From: Escherichia phage JN02
Direction: 5' to 3' (one strand)
Length of the DNA stretch: 64,000 bases
Sequence record: MT782071.1
Shown: in pieces, positions 19,432 to 26,258 of the stretch
Layout: every line of letters starts with the position of its first letter
How positions within the stretch are numbered: the stretch's first letter is position 1
Notes under the pieces: generated by a model
Seen by the model: only the letters and a program-made list of their open reading frames with translations
Databases searched by the model: none
What the model was told of the DNA's origin: nothing
Translations under genes and position numbers: made by a program

Positions 19432-19725
19432 TTATTTACGGAATGAAAGGAATGCTGGTGCTCGGAATGGAGTATCATCTTTAGAGTATTTAACTAATAC
19501 GACCATTGGTACCTCTGTTTCTAAATGACCTGTCACTACACCGATAAAAATTTGATCGGTGTGTTCAGGGTCACGAAAGTTTTTAAGAGGTTCCATAGCA
19601 ATATGGAATGCACCTGGGAATACTCGATTCAATTCGTCAATCACAGCTTCGTTAAAAACATCATCCGCTGGGATAGCATCTTCAACTACTAGTTCTTGAC
19701 CATTAAAGCGAAGCATAGATTTCAT
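19432..19725 (-). CDS. hypothetical early protein (T4 alt.-x position)
   Basis: 97 aa from internal ATG (MKSMLRF...) with SD GAGGAAA just downstream of an early promoter; ORF-track start at 19797 lies upstream of that promoter. Confidence 0.6.
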   Translation of the reverse strand: MKSMLRFNGQELVVEDAIPADDVFNEAVIDELNRVFPGAFHIAMEPLKNFRDPEHTDQIFIGVVTGHLETEVPMVVLVKYSKDDTPFRAPAFLSFRK

Positions 19726-19754
19726 AACGTTTTCCTCATGTTGTTGATGGGATG

Positions 19755-19784
19755 ATAGTATCACACATCCATGTGTTTGTAAAC
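19755..19784 (-). promoter_or_regulatory. early promoter
   Basis: GTTTAC, 17 nt, ATACTAT, then leader CAACAACATGAGGAAA and ATG at 19725. Confidence 0.65.
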
Positions 19785-21871
19785 TATCCTTGGACAAATT
19801 TAAACGGAACTGATTCTAAATCCATTAAAGATGCTAACAATTTCAATCCTTTAGGAGCACTAGTTTTTTCTACAAATGAGGAGAACGATACCGGCTCATC
19901 TGATTCGATTTCACCCGTCATAGCAACCACCTCGCCTGTTTCCATGAGAACATCACCATCGTAAATGACAGCTTCGTCCAACTGGTCCGAGGACATGACT
20001 TCAGCTTGAATAAATTTAAGGTTGGATTCTAAACCTGCACCAGTGTCAGATGACGCATCTGTAATTTTATTTATCTGCAAGAGAATGCCTCTAGGCAAAA
20101 TAATTTCTTGCTCATTAGGGTGATTACTCAACTGGCCGGGATAAATCACGTTAACTTTATGGGCGCCATCAATAGCCCATCCAACGTTAACACGGATTTG
20201 TTCTGGTGCATGCATAGCTGTTCTTACTTGGCTAGGAGAAATAGTAACACCTTCGTCATTATTATCAATGTTAAGCTCTTTGCGAACTTCTTCAGGAGCA
20301 AGTCCAAGGGCAACGTTCTCTTTAAACCCACCGAAAATAATAGGAGCTAGTGAAGTGGAAACATAGTTTCTGAAGTAGAATACCTTATTTTTAACCATTG
20401 CTTCGTAAATAGGCATTCTGATAGACTGAGCTCTATATAACGTTAGTCCTTCAGGTAAACGATCTCCATTTAAAAACGCTGAATCAAGACCATCAATAGC
20501 GCGTTTAACTTCATCTTCATCTGCAACATCGTAAAAATCTGGTTTATAACGACCTAACAACATATTATTAATATCGATATATGCAGAAGAGGCATATTCA
20601 CGAATAGCTCGTTTTTCAGCAACAGAGTATTGTTTAGGGTCCCGATTCATTGTTATATTAAAGGTGCCTCTAGCCGATTCTCGTGCATAAGTATACATCA
20701 CATTAGACAAGAACGCTGATTTACGTTGTTTCCAAGTTCTTTCAGATACTTCAGCTAAAACGTCGTCGGGCAGTTGGAAATTATCACGTCTAAAATCTTC
20801 AAACCATTCGTCTTTAATAGAGTCTGCAATTTCATTTGCAGCTTCAACAAAAGCAGCTAATGCTTTAACAGATGTTGTTTTTTCTGTTTTAATTTTCTTA
20901 GCAAACTTTTCTAAAGTTGGCTTAATAACACCACCATAAGAAACTTCATCAGCAAATCTAAAGGATTCATCAATACGATTATAAATCTTATTTTCGATAT
21001 CAGCAACTAAAGTGCCTTTTGCTGTGGACGATGCTTGGGCTAGTACGATTTCATATGCTTCAGGAAGTAATTCGGCCGTAGCTGGGCCACTAACTTCTTT
21101 AGCAGAATTTTCGTATTTCTGGAATAACTCACCTTCTTGGCGGTCAGCTTCTAAAGATTGACTTGCTGCAATAGCACGACGAGAAATTTTAGTACGAGCA
21201 ATAACAGGCTTATCTTTACGTTTTTCTTCTACAGCAGCAATAGAACCAGCAATAGCCGTTTCTTTGGTGACCTTTTCGCCAGTCTTTTTACTCACATAAA
21301 CTTCGCCAACATCAGAATCTACTTTCGTGTACAACTCTGTGTTAATGTTAGGGATGCCTTTAATATCTTCAATGTTGGCATTTTTACGGACCATCATCAC
21401 ATAGGTGTGTTTACCTGTGAATTGATACATTGCCGACAATACTTTAAAACGACCACCGGTTTTAGTAGAAACTAAACGAGCAAGAAGAGTTTGAAGTTGC
21501 TGTCCGCGTCCTTTCAATTTCTTGGTAGGGAATCGGAACAGAACTGCATCCATACGAAGAGCTTTAACCTGCTCATATACTGTATTGAAAATGGTGTTGA
21601 TTGCATCAATAGGAGCAGGACCAAGGCCATTTTTCAATTCAGCGAGATTACCCTTTTCAGACAGACTCATAATAACAACATGAGCGTATTTGTCGCCAAG
21701 TTTAACTTGTTTTACAGCATCGCCTTCAGAAAGGTAAGAGAATAAGCGAACTACGATGTTTGTATCAACATCACCAATTTTCCAGACTTGTGGAACTTTA
21801 GCTTTAGGGTTCAAATTGACGACAGGAAGACTGCCTTCAGATTCAAACACTTCATTTAATTGTTCGGACAT
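19784..21871 (-). CDS. alt: Alt ADP-ribosyltransferase (injected virion protein)
   Basis: 695 aa; ART-type motif YVSTS; T4 size and position. Confidence 0.85.
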   Translation of the reverse strand: MSEQLNEVFESEGSLPVVNLNPKAKVPQVWKIGDVDTNIVVRLFSYLSEGDAVKQVKLGDKYAHVVIMSLSEKGNLAELKNGLGPAPIDAINTIFNTVYEQVKALRMDAVLFRFPTKKLKGRGQQLQTLLARLVSTKTGGRFKVLSAMYQFTGKHTYVMMVRKNANIEDIKGIPNINTELYTKVDSDVGEVYVSKKTGEKVTKETAIAGSIAAVEEKRKDKPVIARTKISRRAIAASQSLEADRQEGELFQKYENSAKEVSGPATAELLPEAYEIVLAQASSTAKGTLVADIENKIYNRIDESFRFADEVSYGGVIKPTLEKFAKKIKTEKTTSVKALAAFVEAANEIADSIKDEWFEDFRRDNFQLPDDVLAEVSERTWKQRKSAFLSNVMYTYARESARGTFNITMNRDPKQYSVAEKRAIREYASSAYIDINNMLLGRYKPDFYDVADEDEVKRAIDGLDSAFLNGDRLPEGLTLYRAQSIRMPIYEAMVKNKVFYFRNYVSTSLAPIIFGGFKENVALGLAPEEVRKELNIDNNDEGVTISPSQVRTAMHAPEQIRVNVGWAIDGAHKVNVIYPGQLSNHPNEQEIILPRGILLQINKITDASSDTGAGLESNLKFIQAEVMSSDQLDEAVIYDGDVLMETGEVVAMTGEIESDEPVSFSSFVEKTSAPKGLKLLASLMDLESVPFKFVQG

Positions 21872-21911
21872 AGTGTTTTCCTTTTAGTAATAATTTATAT
21901 TTATGCCAAAA

Positions 21912-21927
21912 AGAGCCCGAAGGCTCT
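21912..21927 (-). terminator. intrinsic terminator upstream of alt
   Basis: minus strand AGAGCC-UUCG-GGCUCU followed by UUUUU. Confidence 0.7.
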
Positions 21928-22115
21928 TAATCTACAATCGGGAGCAAAGTACGATAAACTTCAAAATTAGGGCCTTTTTCGTACTTATCAAAATTGTCCA
22001 TAAAAATATGATAGGAATCGTTATTAGGAAAATCTAATACAATTTGGGAACAAGAGGTGGAAACATTGCGTCCATCTTTATTAGCGACAACTACTGTTTC
22101 TAAATAAGCTTTCAT
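21927..22115 (-). CDS. hypothetical protein
   Basis: 62 aa from ATG at 22115, one nt after gene 30 stop; longer ORF-track start overlaps gene 30. Confidence 0.5.
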   Translation of the reverse strand: MKAYLETVVVANKDGRNVSTSCSQIVLDFPNNDSYHIFMDNFDKYEKGPNFEVYRTLLPIVD

Positions 22116-22116
22116 A

Positions 22117-23610
22117 TTATAGACCAGTTTGAGACCAATCACCAAATACATCTTCAAATGAATCGGCCTCTGTTTTATCGAAACGCCAACCTTTAATAGT
22201 TGGAAGGAAAATACCTACAGTGCCTTCACGTCCTTTAGAATGAACCCAACCATTGCATTCACAATCAGCAATACGTCCAATCAATTTACCTTCACGAGCT
22301 TCAGACATTAATCGTTCGCGGTCCAAATCATGACGCTCATCTAAAGGAATAAGAACCTTTACACCATCAACTGTTTTATGAGTTGTATCTTTAAACCCTG
22401 AACCACAATCAGTTGTAATACGACGACAACGTGATACGAGTTCGACACCACCTAATTTGTTAGGGTCTTTAGAGTGTTCATAGTATCCTACAACTTCTAA
22501 AGCGATATCAATAACTTCTTTAAATTTAATTAGGTTCTTAGAGCGTTTGTTTTCCCAATATGAATCACGGTTTTTAAGGATAATACCTTCAAGACCTTGG
22601 TCAACGTATTTTTTATAAACCACTTTAGCTTCGTCAAGATTACGAACTAACTGATTTTCAATTGGCTCAATTCGCTTAAAGCCTTCAGCCATATTTTCAA
22701 GAGCAGCAAAACGAACATCGTATTTCTGACCTTTAATTTTGCCTTCAGAATAAACTTCATCCAATGGAACATAGTCCCAGGCTTGAAGAACCATACCTTC
22801 CGCTTCTTTAGGAGAAATAGTCCCTTGAAGAGATTTATTTGCTAAACCATTTGAAGTGCTACGGTCTGCAACTTGTACTTCTTCGGATTCTTCATTATCA
22901 CCAAATAAGAACGACAGATCATTTCCTGAGCTCACAGCCTTTTTAATATCGAATGAATGATAAACTAATTCACCGTCGATTAAAACCCCATTAGGGTGTC
23001 TTTCACGAGCTTCTTTAGTCATTTCCATTAGTTCATCAGCTAATAGAGTAAGACCATGGTATTCGTTACCTGCGCGAGAAAAGAATTGAACACCATCATC
23101 GCGAACTTCGGCGAAACAACGAGCACCATCTGCTTTTAATTGGGCAAATGCAGGCCATTTAATATTTTTAGTAATCAATTTCTCATCATATGCAGATGCT
23201 AACATCTGTGGTTGCAATTGAATAAGTCCAGGCCACACCTTATTCGCGATAGACACTGAAGCACCTACTTCAAGGTCGCGCATCATTACACGACGAAGGA
23301 CTTCTACATCATCAGGTTTACCGTCCGCAATATAACCCATGAGCTCTTTAATTGCAGCATTACCAGTGAGTTTACGAGTAGCTAATGTGAACTCAATAAA
23401 ATCCAACATGTCATCTAATTCAAGAAGTCCATACGCTTGAGACCTTTCACCCGGTCCTGGCCATTTCTTAATATAATACTGGATACCACGTGCATATGTT
23501 AAACGATACACACGTTCAAGTAATTTGTTGTCCTTATTTTTCTTAAGGATTTCTTGTTTTGTTTTAGTAGAACCGATCGCAGCTATTTGGTTTAAAATAT
23601 CTAAAATCAT
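22117..23610 (-). CDS. 30: ATP-dependent DNA ligase gp30
   Basis: 497 aa; adenylation motif KADGAR; matches T4 DNA ligase. Confidence 0.95.
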   Translation of the reverse strand: MILDILNQIAAIGSTKTKQEILKKNKDNKLLERVYRLTYARGIQYYIKKWPGPGERSQAYGLLELDDMLDFIEFTLATRKLTGNAAIKELMGYIADGKPDDVEVLRRVMMRDLEVGASVSIANKVWPGLIQLQPQMLASAYDEKLITKNIKWPAFAQLKADGARCFAEVRDDGVQFFSRAGNEYHGLTLLADELMEMTKEARERHPNGVLIDGELVYHSFDIKKAVSSGNDLSFLFGDNEESEEVQVADRSTSNGLANKSLQGTISPKEAEGMVLQAWDYVPLDEVYSEGKIKGQKYDVRFAALENMAEGFKRIEPIENQLVRNLDEAKVVYKKYVDQGLEGIILKNRDSYWENKRSKNLIKFKEVIDIALEVVGYYEHSKDPNKLGGVELVSRCRRITTDCGSGFKDTTHKTVDGVKVLIPLDERHDLDRERLMSEAREGKLIGRIADCECNGWVHSKGREGTVGIFLPTIKGWRFDKTEADSFEDVFGDWSQTGL

Positions 23611-23876
23611 TTGATGTCCTCGATTTTGGTTACGGTTCTATTATAAGCCACTTCATCTAGAAGCGATTTCAGCGTTTTCTGATAAGTGGTAATCCATTTA
23701 CCGAGACCTTCAACATAATATTCTGAAATGTAGATGAACCCTTGTTCAACACACTCTTTAAATATTTCTGCGTCTTTTACTGAACGAAACACTGGCCAAT
23801 CTCGAAAGAACATGTTAACGTGGCCGTAGTCACGCGTTGTGTTTTTGCCATCTGTAATATCATGAACTACAAACAT
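23607..23876 (-). CDS. hypothetical protein (30.1 position)
   Basis: 89 aa, ATG start. Confidence 0.6.
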   Translation of the reverse strand: MFVVHDITDGKNTTRDYGHVNMFFRDWPVFRSVKDAEIFKECVEQGFIYISEYYVEGLGKWITTYQKTLKSLLDEVAYNRTVTKIEDIK

Positions 23877-23885
23877 AATTAACCC

Positions 23886-24701
23886 TTAACAATTTATAGA
23901 CCAAGTCCATTTGGACGAATCTAAAGGAAAGTTTTGAATCGTCCACCATGGCTGCATATCGGTTGGTCCTTGGGTTCGCCAGGTATACGGATTCGACGGA
24001 GCACCAATTTGATTAGGCCATGCGCCTGGACTTGTTGTACCAGATTCTTTAAGCAAATCTGCCAATCGTTTTAAAAGGTCTTCACGATCTGAATCTGAAT
24101 TATGCTCTGGTGGAACCAAACGAGATTCAATATCATCCCACGTGTGTACACGTTGTGCAGTACGAGGAATGGCATCACGTTCACCACGAGCCAACCAATA
24201 AATCGGTACATTAAGAATTTCTGCTGCATGGTCACAGTGATGAGCTAAATCGTCAACGTAACAAATCACGTTATATTTTGTTTTAGCTAGTTCGAATAAT
24301 TGTTCCTTTGAAGAATCATGTCCACACATCATTACTTCAGAAAAGGCGCCTGGGAACAAAGCATTCAAATTAAATTGTCTATTCAATCGAGCATCAATTG
24401 AATCACCTAGCGCCGTCACGGCTACAAAATTATAGTTTTCTTTTAGTTTATTGATAACTCGAAGAGCATCCGAATAAGGCGCTAAGTAACGAATAAAATC
24501 AGAGCGATTATATTTTTCTATTAATTGTTTACCGAGATTATCGTCGGTATTGAATAGTTTACCAGGAGAAATAAATTTTTCGTCCTGAATCATTTTTAAA
24601 ATATGTTCTAATGGAAGATTATATTTTTGGGCAAAATAAGGAAGTCCAGATTGCCAGCTTAAACATACACCATCAATGTCAGTCAAAATAGTAGGCTTCA
24701 T
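23886..24701 (-). CDS. HAD-superfamily phosphatase-like protein (30.2 position)
   Basis: 271 aa; N-terminal DIDGV motif and later VDD motif typical of HAD hydrolases. Confidence 0.7.
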   Translation of the reverse strand: MKPTILTDIDGVCLSWQSGLPYFAQKYNLPLEHILKMIQDEKFISPGKLFNTDDNLGKQLIEKYNRSDFIRYLAPYSDALRVINKLKENYNFVAVTALGDSIDARLNRQFNLNALFPGAFSEVMMCGHDSSKEQLFELAKTKYNVICYVDDLAHHCDHAAEILNVPIYWLARGERDAIPRTAQRVHTWDDIESRLVPPEHNSDSDREDLLKRLADLLKESGTTSPGAWPNQIGAPSNPYTWRTQGPTDMQPWWTIQNFPLDSSKWTWSINC

Positions 24702-25156
24702 AAAGAGTCTCTTAATAGGTTTAACACATCAATAAATTCAGCTTCAGTTAATATTGTATCATCTTTTGTTAGGTGGCTGGCCATGCTGTGCTTCAAAATT
24801 TTTCCTTTCGAAGCCTGTAATGCATCACGAAAGCCTTTGTTTTGGATCGCGGCTTCAAAATATGCATTTGTATATAATTCTTTCCATGCTTCAGAGTATC
24901 TTGAAAATGGAATTCCAAGCCAGAAAAGCGTCCCACGGTCCTGAGCTCTTGCATAAGACCTTCCAGCTTGCTGGGCGGCCAATCCGGACATCCCAAATAT
25001 ACGTTTTTGTTGTTCAACATTTTTCACCTTACACCCTTGGAGAAATCCTTCAAGTCCTCCGAATTGAATACCATCCATAACAAAAGGCCATTGGGCGAAA
25101 TTACTTAATGCGCATGACGGCCATTTGAAATTGCTTCTTATTTCTAATTCACACAT
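24698..25156 (-). CDS. NADAR (YbiA/DUF1768)-like protein (30.3 position)
   Basis: 152 aa from ATG at 25156 (track used GTG at 25165); SNFA-WP-DG signature resembling YbiA-type NADAR domains. Confidence 0.65.
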   Translation of the reverse strand: MCELEIRSNFKWPSCALSNFAQWPFVMDGIQFGGLEGFLQGCKVKNVEQQKRIFGMSGLAAQQAGRSYARAQDRGTLFWLGIPFSRYSEAWKELYTNAYFEAAIQNKGFRDALQASKGKILKHSMASHLTKDDTILTEAEFIDVLNLLRDSL

Positions 25157-25367
25157 CTTTAACACTTATAATTTCAACATCAGCCCAATGACCGTATCCA
25201 GGTATACGGTCTTCGATAGATAAATTTCCGTCATTTTTAGGCATTTTAATTGACGTAACGTATGGTTCTAAACGGTTTTCTGCATAATATGGAAAAACGT
25301 CTGTTACACGATAAGTAACTTCGATCATTTCCGTACCAAACAATTTCTGGATTAATTTATTCAACAT
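25149..25367 (-). CDS. hypothetical protein
   Basis: 72 aa, ATG start, coupled to downstream gene. Confidence 0.55.
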   Translation of the reverse strand: MLNKLIQKLFGTEMIEVTYRVTDVFPYYAENRLEPYVTSIKMPKNDGNLSIEDRIPGYGHWADVEIISVKDV

Positions 25368-25554
25368 GTTTCAACCCTTTAATAGGAGATAACTCTTTAC
25401 CCATACGTATGTCAGAAGTCCAATCAACCCATTGAACAGCATACGCTTCATTGATAATTCCAGCGGCGGTTTTAAATTCAGGGAGAACTTTAAAAATCAC
25501 CCCAGGAATTCCAACACCTTTTAATTGGACTGTTTGTGCTATTAAAAATTTCAT
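25357..25554 (-). CDS. hypothetical protein
   Basis: 65 aa, ATG start downstream of an early-type promoter. Confidence 0.55.
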   Translation of the reverse strand: MKFLIAQTVQLKGVGIPGVIFKVLPEFKTAAGIINEAYAVQWVDWTSDIRMGKELSPIKGLKHVE

Positions 25555-25578: not shown

Positions 25579-25609
25579 ATTATACTCTAATCCGTCCTTG
25601 GATGTAAAC
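25579..25609 (-). promoter_or_regulatory. early promoter (weaker match)
   Basis: GTTTAC and TATAAT with a 17-19 nt spacer upstream of ORF 25357..25554. Confidence 0.45.
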
Positions 25610-26223
25610 TACTTAACGAAATTAATTTCTACCGGATGAACAACAGGTTGAGCAGTGATATATTGAGTAATTGCTTTCATGACTAGAGCTTCAGAACCAG
25701 GATTTTTCTCAACGAATTCACGTGCTTGGTTATGGGCTTCGAGTTCACTTAGTAAACCACTTCGTTGGCATCCACGGTCTTGAGTACCTTGTTCAGATAA
25801 AAAGACGACGATGTATTTTTCATCGTCATACGGTTTAGACGGTTGAGCAAATGTTCCTTTACTTCCAAAAGGAGAGTTATGACGCCACATCACGCCGTGA
25901 GGAGTTTCAACCTTCGTATATTCATGCGGGCCATTTTTCTTAGTTTCTTGATGTGGAACTTCGTAGACCTTAGGGTTAGGACATTCAATAAAATGCTCAT
26001 CTAAATCGGTCGAGAATATTAAAGTAAAACAATGTCTGAATTTACCAACACCTGCCTGATAAATTTTACCTTCAGAAGTTCTAATTTCACAAACTGAGCC
26101 GGCATCAGTAACTTCTAAAACTTCAAAAGGCTCAATAAGGTCATATGAGAACATGTTTTTAAGGCGTGGAGTAATATCCCCATTTTTAAAATTCATTTTA
26201 TAAAAAGTATTAACTTTAAACAT
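25609..26223 (-). CDS. hypothetical protein (30.6 position)
   Basis: 204 aa from internal ATG (MFKVNTF...) with SD GAGGAAA; the stem-loop at 26235-26252 would lie inside the longer track ORF. Confidence 0.6.
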   Translation of the reverse strand: MFKVNTFYKMNFKNGDITPRLKNMFSYDLIEPFEVLEVTDAGSVCEIRTSEGKIYQAGVGKFRHCFTLIFSTDLDEHFIECPNPKVYEVPHQETKKNGPHEYTKVETPHGVMWRHNSPFGSKGTFAQPSKPYDDEKYIVVFLSEQGTQDRGCQRSGLLSELEAHNQAREFVEKNPGSEALVMKAITQYITAQPVVHPVEINFVK

Positions 26224-26234
26224 AATTTCCTCAG

Positions 26235-26252
26235 TGGGAGCCGAAGCTCCCA
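26235..26252 (-). other. stem-loop immediately 5' of an RBS
   Basis: minus strand UGGGAGC-UUCG-GCUCCCA, then SD GAGGAAA and ATG at 26223. Confidence 0.5.
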
Positions 26253-26258
26253 ATTAAT

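Follow-up and report, generated by a model that had tools for sequence, protein, structure and literature searches.

Gene order and transcription around alt, 30.2 and 30.3

An earlier note, made from the letters of a 64,000-nucleotide stretch of Escherichia phage JN02 (sequence record MT782071.1; hereafter the window), had drawn attention to three nearby open reading frames (ORFs) on one strand, i.e., a 695-amino-acid (aa) ADP-ribosyltransferase (ART), Alt, a 271-aa HAD-family hydrolase, and a 152-aa protein with a YbiA/NADAR signature. All three ORFs were confirmed exactly, on the minus strand, as alt (19784–21871), 30.2 (23886–24701), and 30.3 (24698–25156; 152 aa from its ATG), and the 152-aa protein is an orthologue of T4 gp30.3/AdfN, a phage-type NADAR. 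The 5.6 kb surrounding these genes displayed 96–98% identity to ~150 genomes of Tequatrovirus (T4-like coliphages), with Escherichia phage GADS24 as the best match (97.6% identity), and the gene order is that of T4 between genes 54 and 30.9. Profile matches with E-values of 1e-26 to 1e-261 (PHROG, Pfam) indicate that the genes of this locus are conserved and not chance ORFs.

Since alt, the HAD gene, and the NADAR-like gene all lie on the minus strand, as do all features described below for the window, transcription proceeds from high to low coordinates, in the order 30.5, 30.4, 30.3, 30.2, 30.1, 30, alt.1, a terminator, a late-type promoter, alt, and alt.-3. Alt had been described as being “followed by” the HAD and NADAR genes, which holds for their proximity and shared strand but not for their transcription, where the NADAR gene comes first and alt last. 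Overall, the locus is a standard T4-type early/middle run, 30.5-30.4-30.3-30.2-30.1-30-alt.1, and then alt, a late gene with its own transcription.

The run begins with homologues of 30.5 (25357–25554, 65 aa; phrog_1690, E 2.4e-28, and T4 gene order) and 30.4 (25149–25367, 72 aa), and continues beyond 30.3 and 30.2 with 30.1 (23607–23876, 89 aa, DUF3045; Pfam PF11243, E 1.1e-26) and gene 30, encoding an ATP-dependent DNA ligase (22117–23610, 497 aa; PF01068, E 6.6e-26, and phrog_114, E 1.3e-155). Just 5′ of 30.5, a scan for the consensus alone picked out a sigma-70-type promoter-like site (TTTACA-18-TATAAT, 11/12; 25579–25608), a candidate early promoter for the genes from 30.5 to 30; across the region, 30 such sites were found against 24.8 expected, i.e., no enrichment overall. 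Within 30.3, a 75-aa ORF in another frame (24793–25020) is listed that corresponds to T4 30.3′, annotated there as “internal translation in a different reading frame”. Further upstream, a 214-aa ORF (25609–26253; phrog_17531, without Pfam match) sits where T4 has the 95-aa gene 30.6, so that one gene has been exchanged for another in the variable region 5′ of 30.5. At this position and at alt, the genes of the window phage differ from those of T4.

At the other end of the run, an alt.1 homologue (21927–22115, 62 aa, 63% identical to T4 Alt.1) is followed by an intrinsic-terminator-like hairpin (GAGCC-TTCG-GGCTC with TTTTT; 21908–21926), which the automatic terminator scan did not list and which was read directly from the sequence. 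Beyond it lies a T4 late-promoter-like box, TATAAATT (21892–21899), that agrees with TATAAATA at 7/8 positions and ends 20 nt 5′ of the alt ATG; no exact TATAAATA late promoter precedes alt, only this variant. T4 has an equivalent hairpin at the same place, and then the canonical late promoter TATAAATA. Given that a terminator and a late-type promoter stand before alt, as in T4, we take alt to be a separate late-type transcription unit, which fits Alt as a packaged head protein (T4 annotation; PMC9503650).

Alt itself bears the YVSTS ART motif that the sequence-only reading had highlighted (residues 503–507), as part of a complete R-S-ExE catalytic triad formed by R480, S505-T-S, and E587-Q-E589. 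It matches Pfam ADPrib_exo_Tox (PF03496) at 96.4 bits (cutoff 23.4) and phrog_802 end to end (E 2e-261). The full-length phrog_802 match, the triad, the genomic position, and the upstream terminator and late promoter are thus shared with T4 Alt, a VIP2/C2-C3-type R-S-ExE ADP-ribosyltransferase. Identity between the window and T4 Alt proteins is only 41%, compared to 52–94% for the neighboring genes. The T4 fragments alt.-1 and alt.-2 are absent from the window (19432–21871), where alt.-3 (19432–19725) directly follows alt. From its sequence, the alt locus looks mosaic.

The gp30.3 protein and the published activity of its T4 orthologue

Next, we evaluated the identity and fold of gp30.3. It is 94% identical to T4 gp30.3 across all 152 residues, with nine conservative substitutions, none of which fall at known catalytic positions, and it matches Pfam Phage_30_3 (PF08010) over profile positions 1–138 of 138 at 230.9 bits (cutoff 36, E 4.8e-69). 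The proposed YbiA/NADAR signature was borne out, as gp30.3 LSNFAQWPFVMDG was aligned by HMMER to E. coli YbiA FSNFAAWPIKVDG, and a profile of 57 gp30.3 homologues returned a single match from the PDB, YbiA (E 0.0036). The AlphaFold model built on the alignment of these 57 homologues, with the T4 sequence left out, reached a pLDDT of 93.5 and a pTM of 0.89. When this model was compared to the PDB with Foldseek, the top three matches (probability 0.97–1.00) were all three solved NADARs, i.e., YbiA (2b3w), the Phytophthora NADAR with ADP-ribose (8bau), and the Geobacter lovleyi DarG1 NADAR (8bat), and the rest were noise. A profile and structure check of the NADAR fold, as the earlier note had proposed, is therefore in its favor.

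The catalytic positions point the same way. E36, K43, and H123 were invariant among the 57 homologues; the first two of these had been mutated in the study of T4 AdfN (PMC11825919) and are equivalent to E43 and K50 of PnNADAR. Phage NADARs are distinguished by a His that replaces the catalytic Glu of the YbiA type (E125 in PnNADAR) or the Asp of the DarG1 type (PMC11543638, PMC11125620), and H123 of gp30.3 is this phage-type His at the third catalytic position. The C-terminal helix, the loss of which in the RB69 allele reduces activity (PMC11825919), is intact, spanning residues 138–151 in the model of the full-length, 152-aa protein. Altogether, the flanking genes, the overlaps with 30.4 and 30.2, the three catalytic residues, and the C-terminal helix are all shared with T4 gp30.3/AdfN. 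With the DarG1-type NADARs (Geobacter lovleyi 8bat, E. coli C7 NADAR) and YbiA (2b3w), gp30.3 has the fold in common, and its family, according to the literature, also the Glu/Lys catalytic pair and the hydrolysis of guanine-ADP-ribose; it differs from them in having no N-terminal extension, a His for Asp/Glu at the third catalytic position, and no adjacent DarT toxin.

The gene is thus already known, and so is its substrate from the T4 orthologue. Phage NADARs had been recognized as the gp30.3 family by earlier bioinformatics (cited in PMC11543638, PMC11125620), and Cihlova et al. found that T4 gp30.3 hydrolyses guanine-linked, but not thymine-linked, ADP-ribose on DNA in vitro (PMC11125620). 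A subsequent study (Nat Commun 2025, PMC11825919) renamed 30.3 as adfN (anti-DarT factor NADAR), and reported AdfN to be both required and sufficient for T-even phages to resist DarTG1, to strip ADP-ribose from DNA in vitro, and to be impaired by E36A and K43A; phage AdfN was described there as an orphan antitoxin used by the phage. In a T4 transposon screen (HIDEN-SEQ, bioRxiv 10.1101/2025.11.20.689424), adfN was conditionally essential on DarTG1: in the sheet “Control_vs_DarTG1”, the identity of which was confirmed and of which we considered the rows from gene 26 to rnlA, insertions in 30.3 were lost (log2 fold change [log2FC] −7.25, adjusted p 0). The view that the substrates are unknown is hence out of date, as the T4 orthologue hydrolyses guanine-ADP-ribose on DNA and neutralises DarT1 (PMC11125620, PMC11825919). 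By analogy with this near-identical protein, the allele in the window is presumably active.

Under an alternative scenario, the main targets of the NADAR in vivo, in addition to DNA, would be other ADP-ribose conjugates, such as guanine-linked ADP-ribose on RNA (RNA G-ADPr) or soluble immune signals, and DarTG1 would be one defence among several. In vitro, G-ADPr is removed from RNA and DNA alike by all four NADAR families, including that of T4 (PMC12945103), and Iyer et al. made the case for low-molecular-weight ADP-ribose derivatives as the predominant targets of phage NADARs (PMC9503650). Members of the gp30.3 family are also widespread in phages far from T4, including one with Nudix and Thg1 neighbors in a 308-kb contig. 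Yet the genetic support concerns only the role in DNA and against DarT1, and the T4 NADAR is inactive on C-ADPr (PMC12945103), so that we consider this scenario unlikely, if the least unlikely of the alternatives weighed here. In the 308-kb contig (L160, 5001–10294; presumably a jumbo phage), the gp30.3-family NADAR lies <5 kb from a Nudix hydrolase and a Thg1-like gene. These neighbors hint at ADP-ribose or RNA-repair contexts for other members of the family.

Gene overlaps, the gp30.2 phosphatase, and the DNA ligase

To place 30.3 and 30.2 in a broader context, viral loci were fetched with gp30.3 (80 loci) or gp30.2 (78 loci) as seed and scanned with hidden Markov models (HMMs) and phmmer. 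All counts below refer to the resulting 79 gp30.3-family loci, for which neighbors within 6 kb were considered, and to the 77 loci with a 30.2 relative.

Both ends of 30.3 overlap with the adjoining gene. As had been noticed, the 30.3 ATG (25156–25154) falls within the final two sense codons (GAT GTG) of the preceding ORF, 30.4, and this 8-nt overlap recurs in 12 related loci. Translational coupling from 30.4 to 30.3, which the earlier note had proposed on these grounds, is plausible and fits the partial depletion of T4 30.4 insertions on DarTG1 (log2FC −1.79, adjusted p 0.014; bioRxiv 10.1101/2025.11.20.689424). Transcriptional polarity onto adfN would give the same result, however, and the depletion fits either effect rather than a function of 30.4 itself. 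At the other end, a single ATGA (24698–24701) contains both the stop of 30.3 and the start of 30.2, an arrangement kept in 14/14 Tequatrovirus/Mosigvirus-type loci and one more distant locus.

The 271-aa product of 30.2 starts with MKPTILTDIDGV and has the DIDGV motif pointed out earlier at residues 8–12. Among 45 homologues, D8 and D10 (motif I), K132 (motif III), and D150-D151 (motif IV) were invariant and T96 (motif II) nearly so, i.e., HAD motifs I–IV are all conserved. The structural model, confident for residues 1–220, combines a Rossmannoid core with an inserted helical C1 cap, and the overall layout is a C1-capped HAD domain (residues 1–195), a helix (203–220), and a disordered Trp/Pro/Thr-rich tail (221–271; window 23889–24041) with 6 Trp in 51 residues that diverges even compared to T4. 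Among homologues, this tail is hypervariable in length and sequence, and some proteins of ~200 aa are without it. Family-level searches were less telling: the Pfam HAD_2 match fell below the gathering score (16.5 bits, cutoff 23.8), NCBIfam gave no assignment for gp30.2 beyond sub-threshold generic HAD matches, and the best PDB profile match was to cdN (E 0.22), covering motif I and the beginning of the cap. At the structural level, Foldseek linked the model to cdN and 3bwv at E ~7e-8. The four HAD motifs and the helical C1 cap are shared with HAD subfamily IA phosphatases, among them 5′(3′)-deoxyribonucleotidases (cdN/mdN, 3bwv). Overall, gp30.2 is a genuine capped HAD phosphatase, and because of its C1 cap it probably acts on a small-molecule phosphomonoester, possibly a nucleotide.

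The constant partner of 30.2 was found to be the DNA ligase gene rather than the NADAR gene. In 71/77 loci, from many T4-like genera, the ligase gene comes just after 30.2 on the same strand, with a median gap of 249 nt over these 71 loci and with the two genes often abutting or overlapping by 1–4 nt, and around this pair 30.1, 30.3, and alt come and go. A NADAR adjoins 30.2 in only 36/77 loci. The adjacency of 30.2 and the ligase gene may reflect a functional coupling or plain vertical synteny. If functional, gp30.2 could be a dedicated phosphatase working with the phage ligase, for instance on a nucleotide or DNA-end phosphomonoester, and 30.3-30.2-30 could form a DNA lesion-clearing cassette in which ADP-ribose would be removed, the phosphate trimmed, and the nick sealed. 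The persistence of the same-strand pair while the surrounding genes vary is compatible with such a cassette, and our literature searches retrieved no publication on gp30.2 function. Against it, the pair could persist by descent alone, a C1 cap is more in keeping with a small-molecule substrate, insertions in T4 30.2 have no effect (see below), and distant 30.2-like HADs outside T4-like phages have no ligase nearby. We therefore regard the cassette as improbable.

Outside the T4-type order, a NADAR gene was found near an ATP-dependent ligase gene in three more settings (L022, 5908–7756, where the ligase start overlaps the NADAR stop; L054, 3786–6477; and L164, 1–5456, also seen in L165), which is about the chance level for an interval of 12 kb. 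A recurring trio of ligase, dNMPase, and NADAR in unrelated phages was considered and rejected, since the neighbor labeled “Phage_T5_dNMPase (weak)” in L164 is unrelated to 30.2 (hhalign probability 3%).

Distribution and genetics of alt, 30.2, and 30.3

That NADAR and ART genes lie near each other in T4-like phages had already been pointed out (PMC9503650), and the earlier note implied a functional grouping of Alt, the NADAR, and the HAD protein. We examined this grouping through anatomy, chemistry, distribution, and genetics. One form that it might take is a pair of writer and eraser, in which the NADAR would reverse or tune the ADP-ribosylation carried out by phage Alt or ModA/ModB on protein or RNA. 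There is precedent for such pairs, as NADARs are combined with ARTs in the DarT1-NADAR and YarT-YbiA toxin-antitoxin operons (PMC11125620), and 30.3 and alt lie on the same strand and 2.8 kb apart. But the window locus does not have the adjacent, co-transcribed genes of an ART-hydrolase operon: 30.1, the ligase gene 30, and alt.1 separate the HAD gene from alt, and a total of four genes, the hairpin terminator, and the late-type promoter stand between 30.3 and alt. Nor do the two genes co-occur across genomes, with Alt within 6 kb in only 14/79 gp30.3-family loci, all in T4-type order. Even where 30.3 adjoins 30.2 (36 loci), the placement of Alt varies: 16 of these loci encode it on the same strand and 12 on the opposite one, and 8 have no Alt.

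By established biochemistry, the two activities would likewise be mismatched. Alt-type R-S-ExE enzymes modify arginine, while NADARs hydrolyse guanine N2 adducts. Alt of the window has the arginine-directed R-S-ExE signature, and every NADAR tested, including T4’s, acts on guanine and not on thymine adducts. Finally, T4 alt insertions were neutral on DarTG1 (log2FC −0.01, 178 sites, not significant; HIDEN-SEQ, bioRxiv 10.1101/2025.11.20.689424). An eraser of Alt-type modification is, on this evidence, a very unlikely role for the NADAR.

The tie between 30.3 and 30.2 is closer, and gp30.2 might be the helper that AdfN lacks: T4 AdfN needs a T-even factor not yet named (PMC11825919), and gp30.2, co-translated with it, could stabilise or localise AdfN or process a phosphorylated by-product of de-ADP-ribosylation. 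Consistent with this idea are the ATGA overlap described above and the placement of 30.3 immediately 5′ of 30.2 in 36/77 loci, invariably co-oriented and in this order, with gaps of −16 to +1221 nt and including 160–235 kb T4-like genomes of other genera. A distant 30.2-like HAD is also found near a gp30.3-family NADAR in one contig (L043). The distribution as a whole tells against it, since 41/77 30.2 loci have no NADAR nearby, at least 9 T4-like genomes carry the NADAR ~60 kb from 30.2 (contig coordinates), 60/79 gp30.3-family loci are without a 30.2 relative, and the constant neighbor of 30.2 is the ligase. Within 6 kb, a 30.2 relative was found in 19/79 gp30.3-family loci and a ligase in 20/79, and these neighbors, like Alt, are nearly all in T4-type order. 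Moreover, NADAR hydrolysis yields free ADP-ribose, which, by established chemistry, offers a HAD phosphatase no phosphomonoester.

On DarTG1, where 30.3 insertions were lost, the 71 transposon sites in T4 30.2 showed no depletion (log2FC −0.12, p 0.61), and insertions in 30.1 (log2FC −0.01) and 61.2 (adfA; log2FC −0.34) were not significantly affected either (HIDEN-SEQ, bioRxiv 10.1101/2025.11.20.689424). T4 30.2 is non-essential, with insertions neutral in LB, M9, and DarTG1, and no phenotype was found in minimal medium (LB vs M9, log2FC −0.10). Having been examined through both synteny and the T4 screen, 30.2 as the missing helper of AdfN was rejected as a leading idea because its insertions are neutral on DarTG1, and we hold it to be very unlikely. 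The published screen suggests that the T-even factor required by AdfN is neither 30.2 nor alt. The phage contig with the distant HAD (L043, 4745–6465), 166 kb in length, is ordered differently and encodes a 30.2-like HAD of 190 aa (HMM E 6e-18) two genes 5′ of the NADAR, with no ligase nearby.

Taken together, anatomy, chemistry, distribution, and genetics indicate that there is no Alt-NADAR-HAD module: alt is a separate late unit, its expected chemistry would not match that of the NADAR, the genes separate freely, and insertions in 30.2 and alt are neutral on DarTG1. Instead, we consider it very likely that 30.3 is an active AdfN removing DarT1-type guanine ADP-ribose from phage DNA, with 30.2 and alt independent of this role. 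Gene identities, folds, catalytic residues, anatomy, and distribution were computed here, and activity and phenotype are taken from the literature on the 94%-identical T4 protein.

Several points weigh against this conclusion. The allele in the window differs by its nine substitutions from the T4 protein on which activity and phenotype rest, and T4 AdfN is fully effective only during T-even infection, implying an extra T-even cofactor (PMC11825919). The loci counted here stem from a redundant collection, and their numbers lack phylogenetic independence. In addition, the kept ATGA overlap and the position of 30.3 directly 5′ of 30.2 in 36/77 loci could reflect a conditional functional tie between the two genes, which would be invisible in one DarTG1 screen.

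For an AdfN role of 30.3, the following mechanism can be proposed. A host DarT1 toxin would ADP-ribosylate replicating phage DNA, and AdfN, a minimal NADAR-fold glycohydrolase, would cut the ADP-ribose from guanine N2; with the adducts cleared, phage replication would proceed, AdfN acting as an orphan antitoxin. Alt would be packaged and would ADP-ribosylate host proteins specifically on arginine, and gp30.2 would be an independent capped HAD phosphatase, probably of a small phosphomonoester and possibly of a nucleotide, neither of them needed for the AdfN counter-defence. The three genes would then stand together by inherited gene order, and not through a shared pathway.

Overall, the observation made from the sequence was confirmed, and its interpretation is partly supported. 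A reader with access only to sequence can recognise a NADAR from its motifs, although the biology was in this case already in the literature. The useful result is a negative one: annotations should keep Alt, the HAD protein, and the NADAR apart rather than group them into a single ADP-ribose module.

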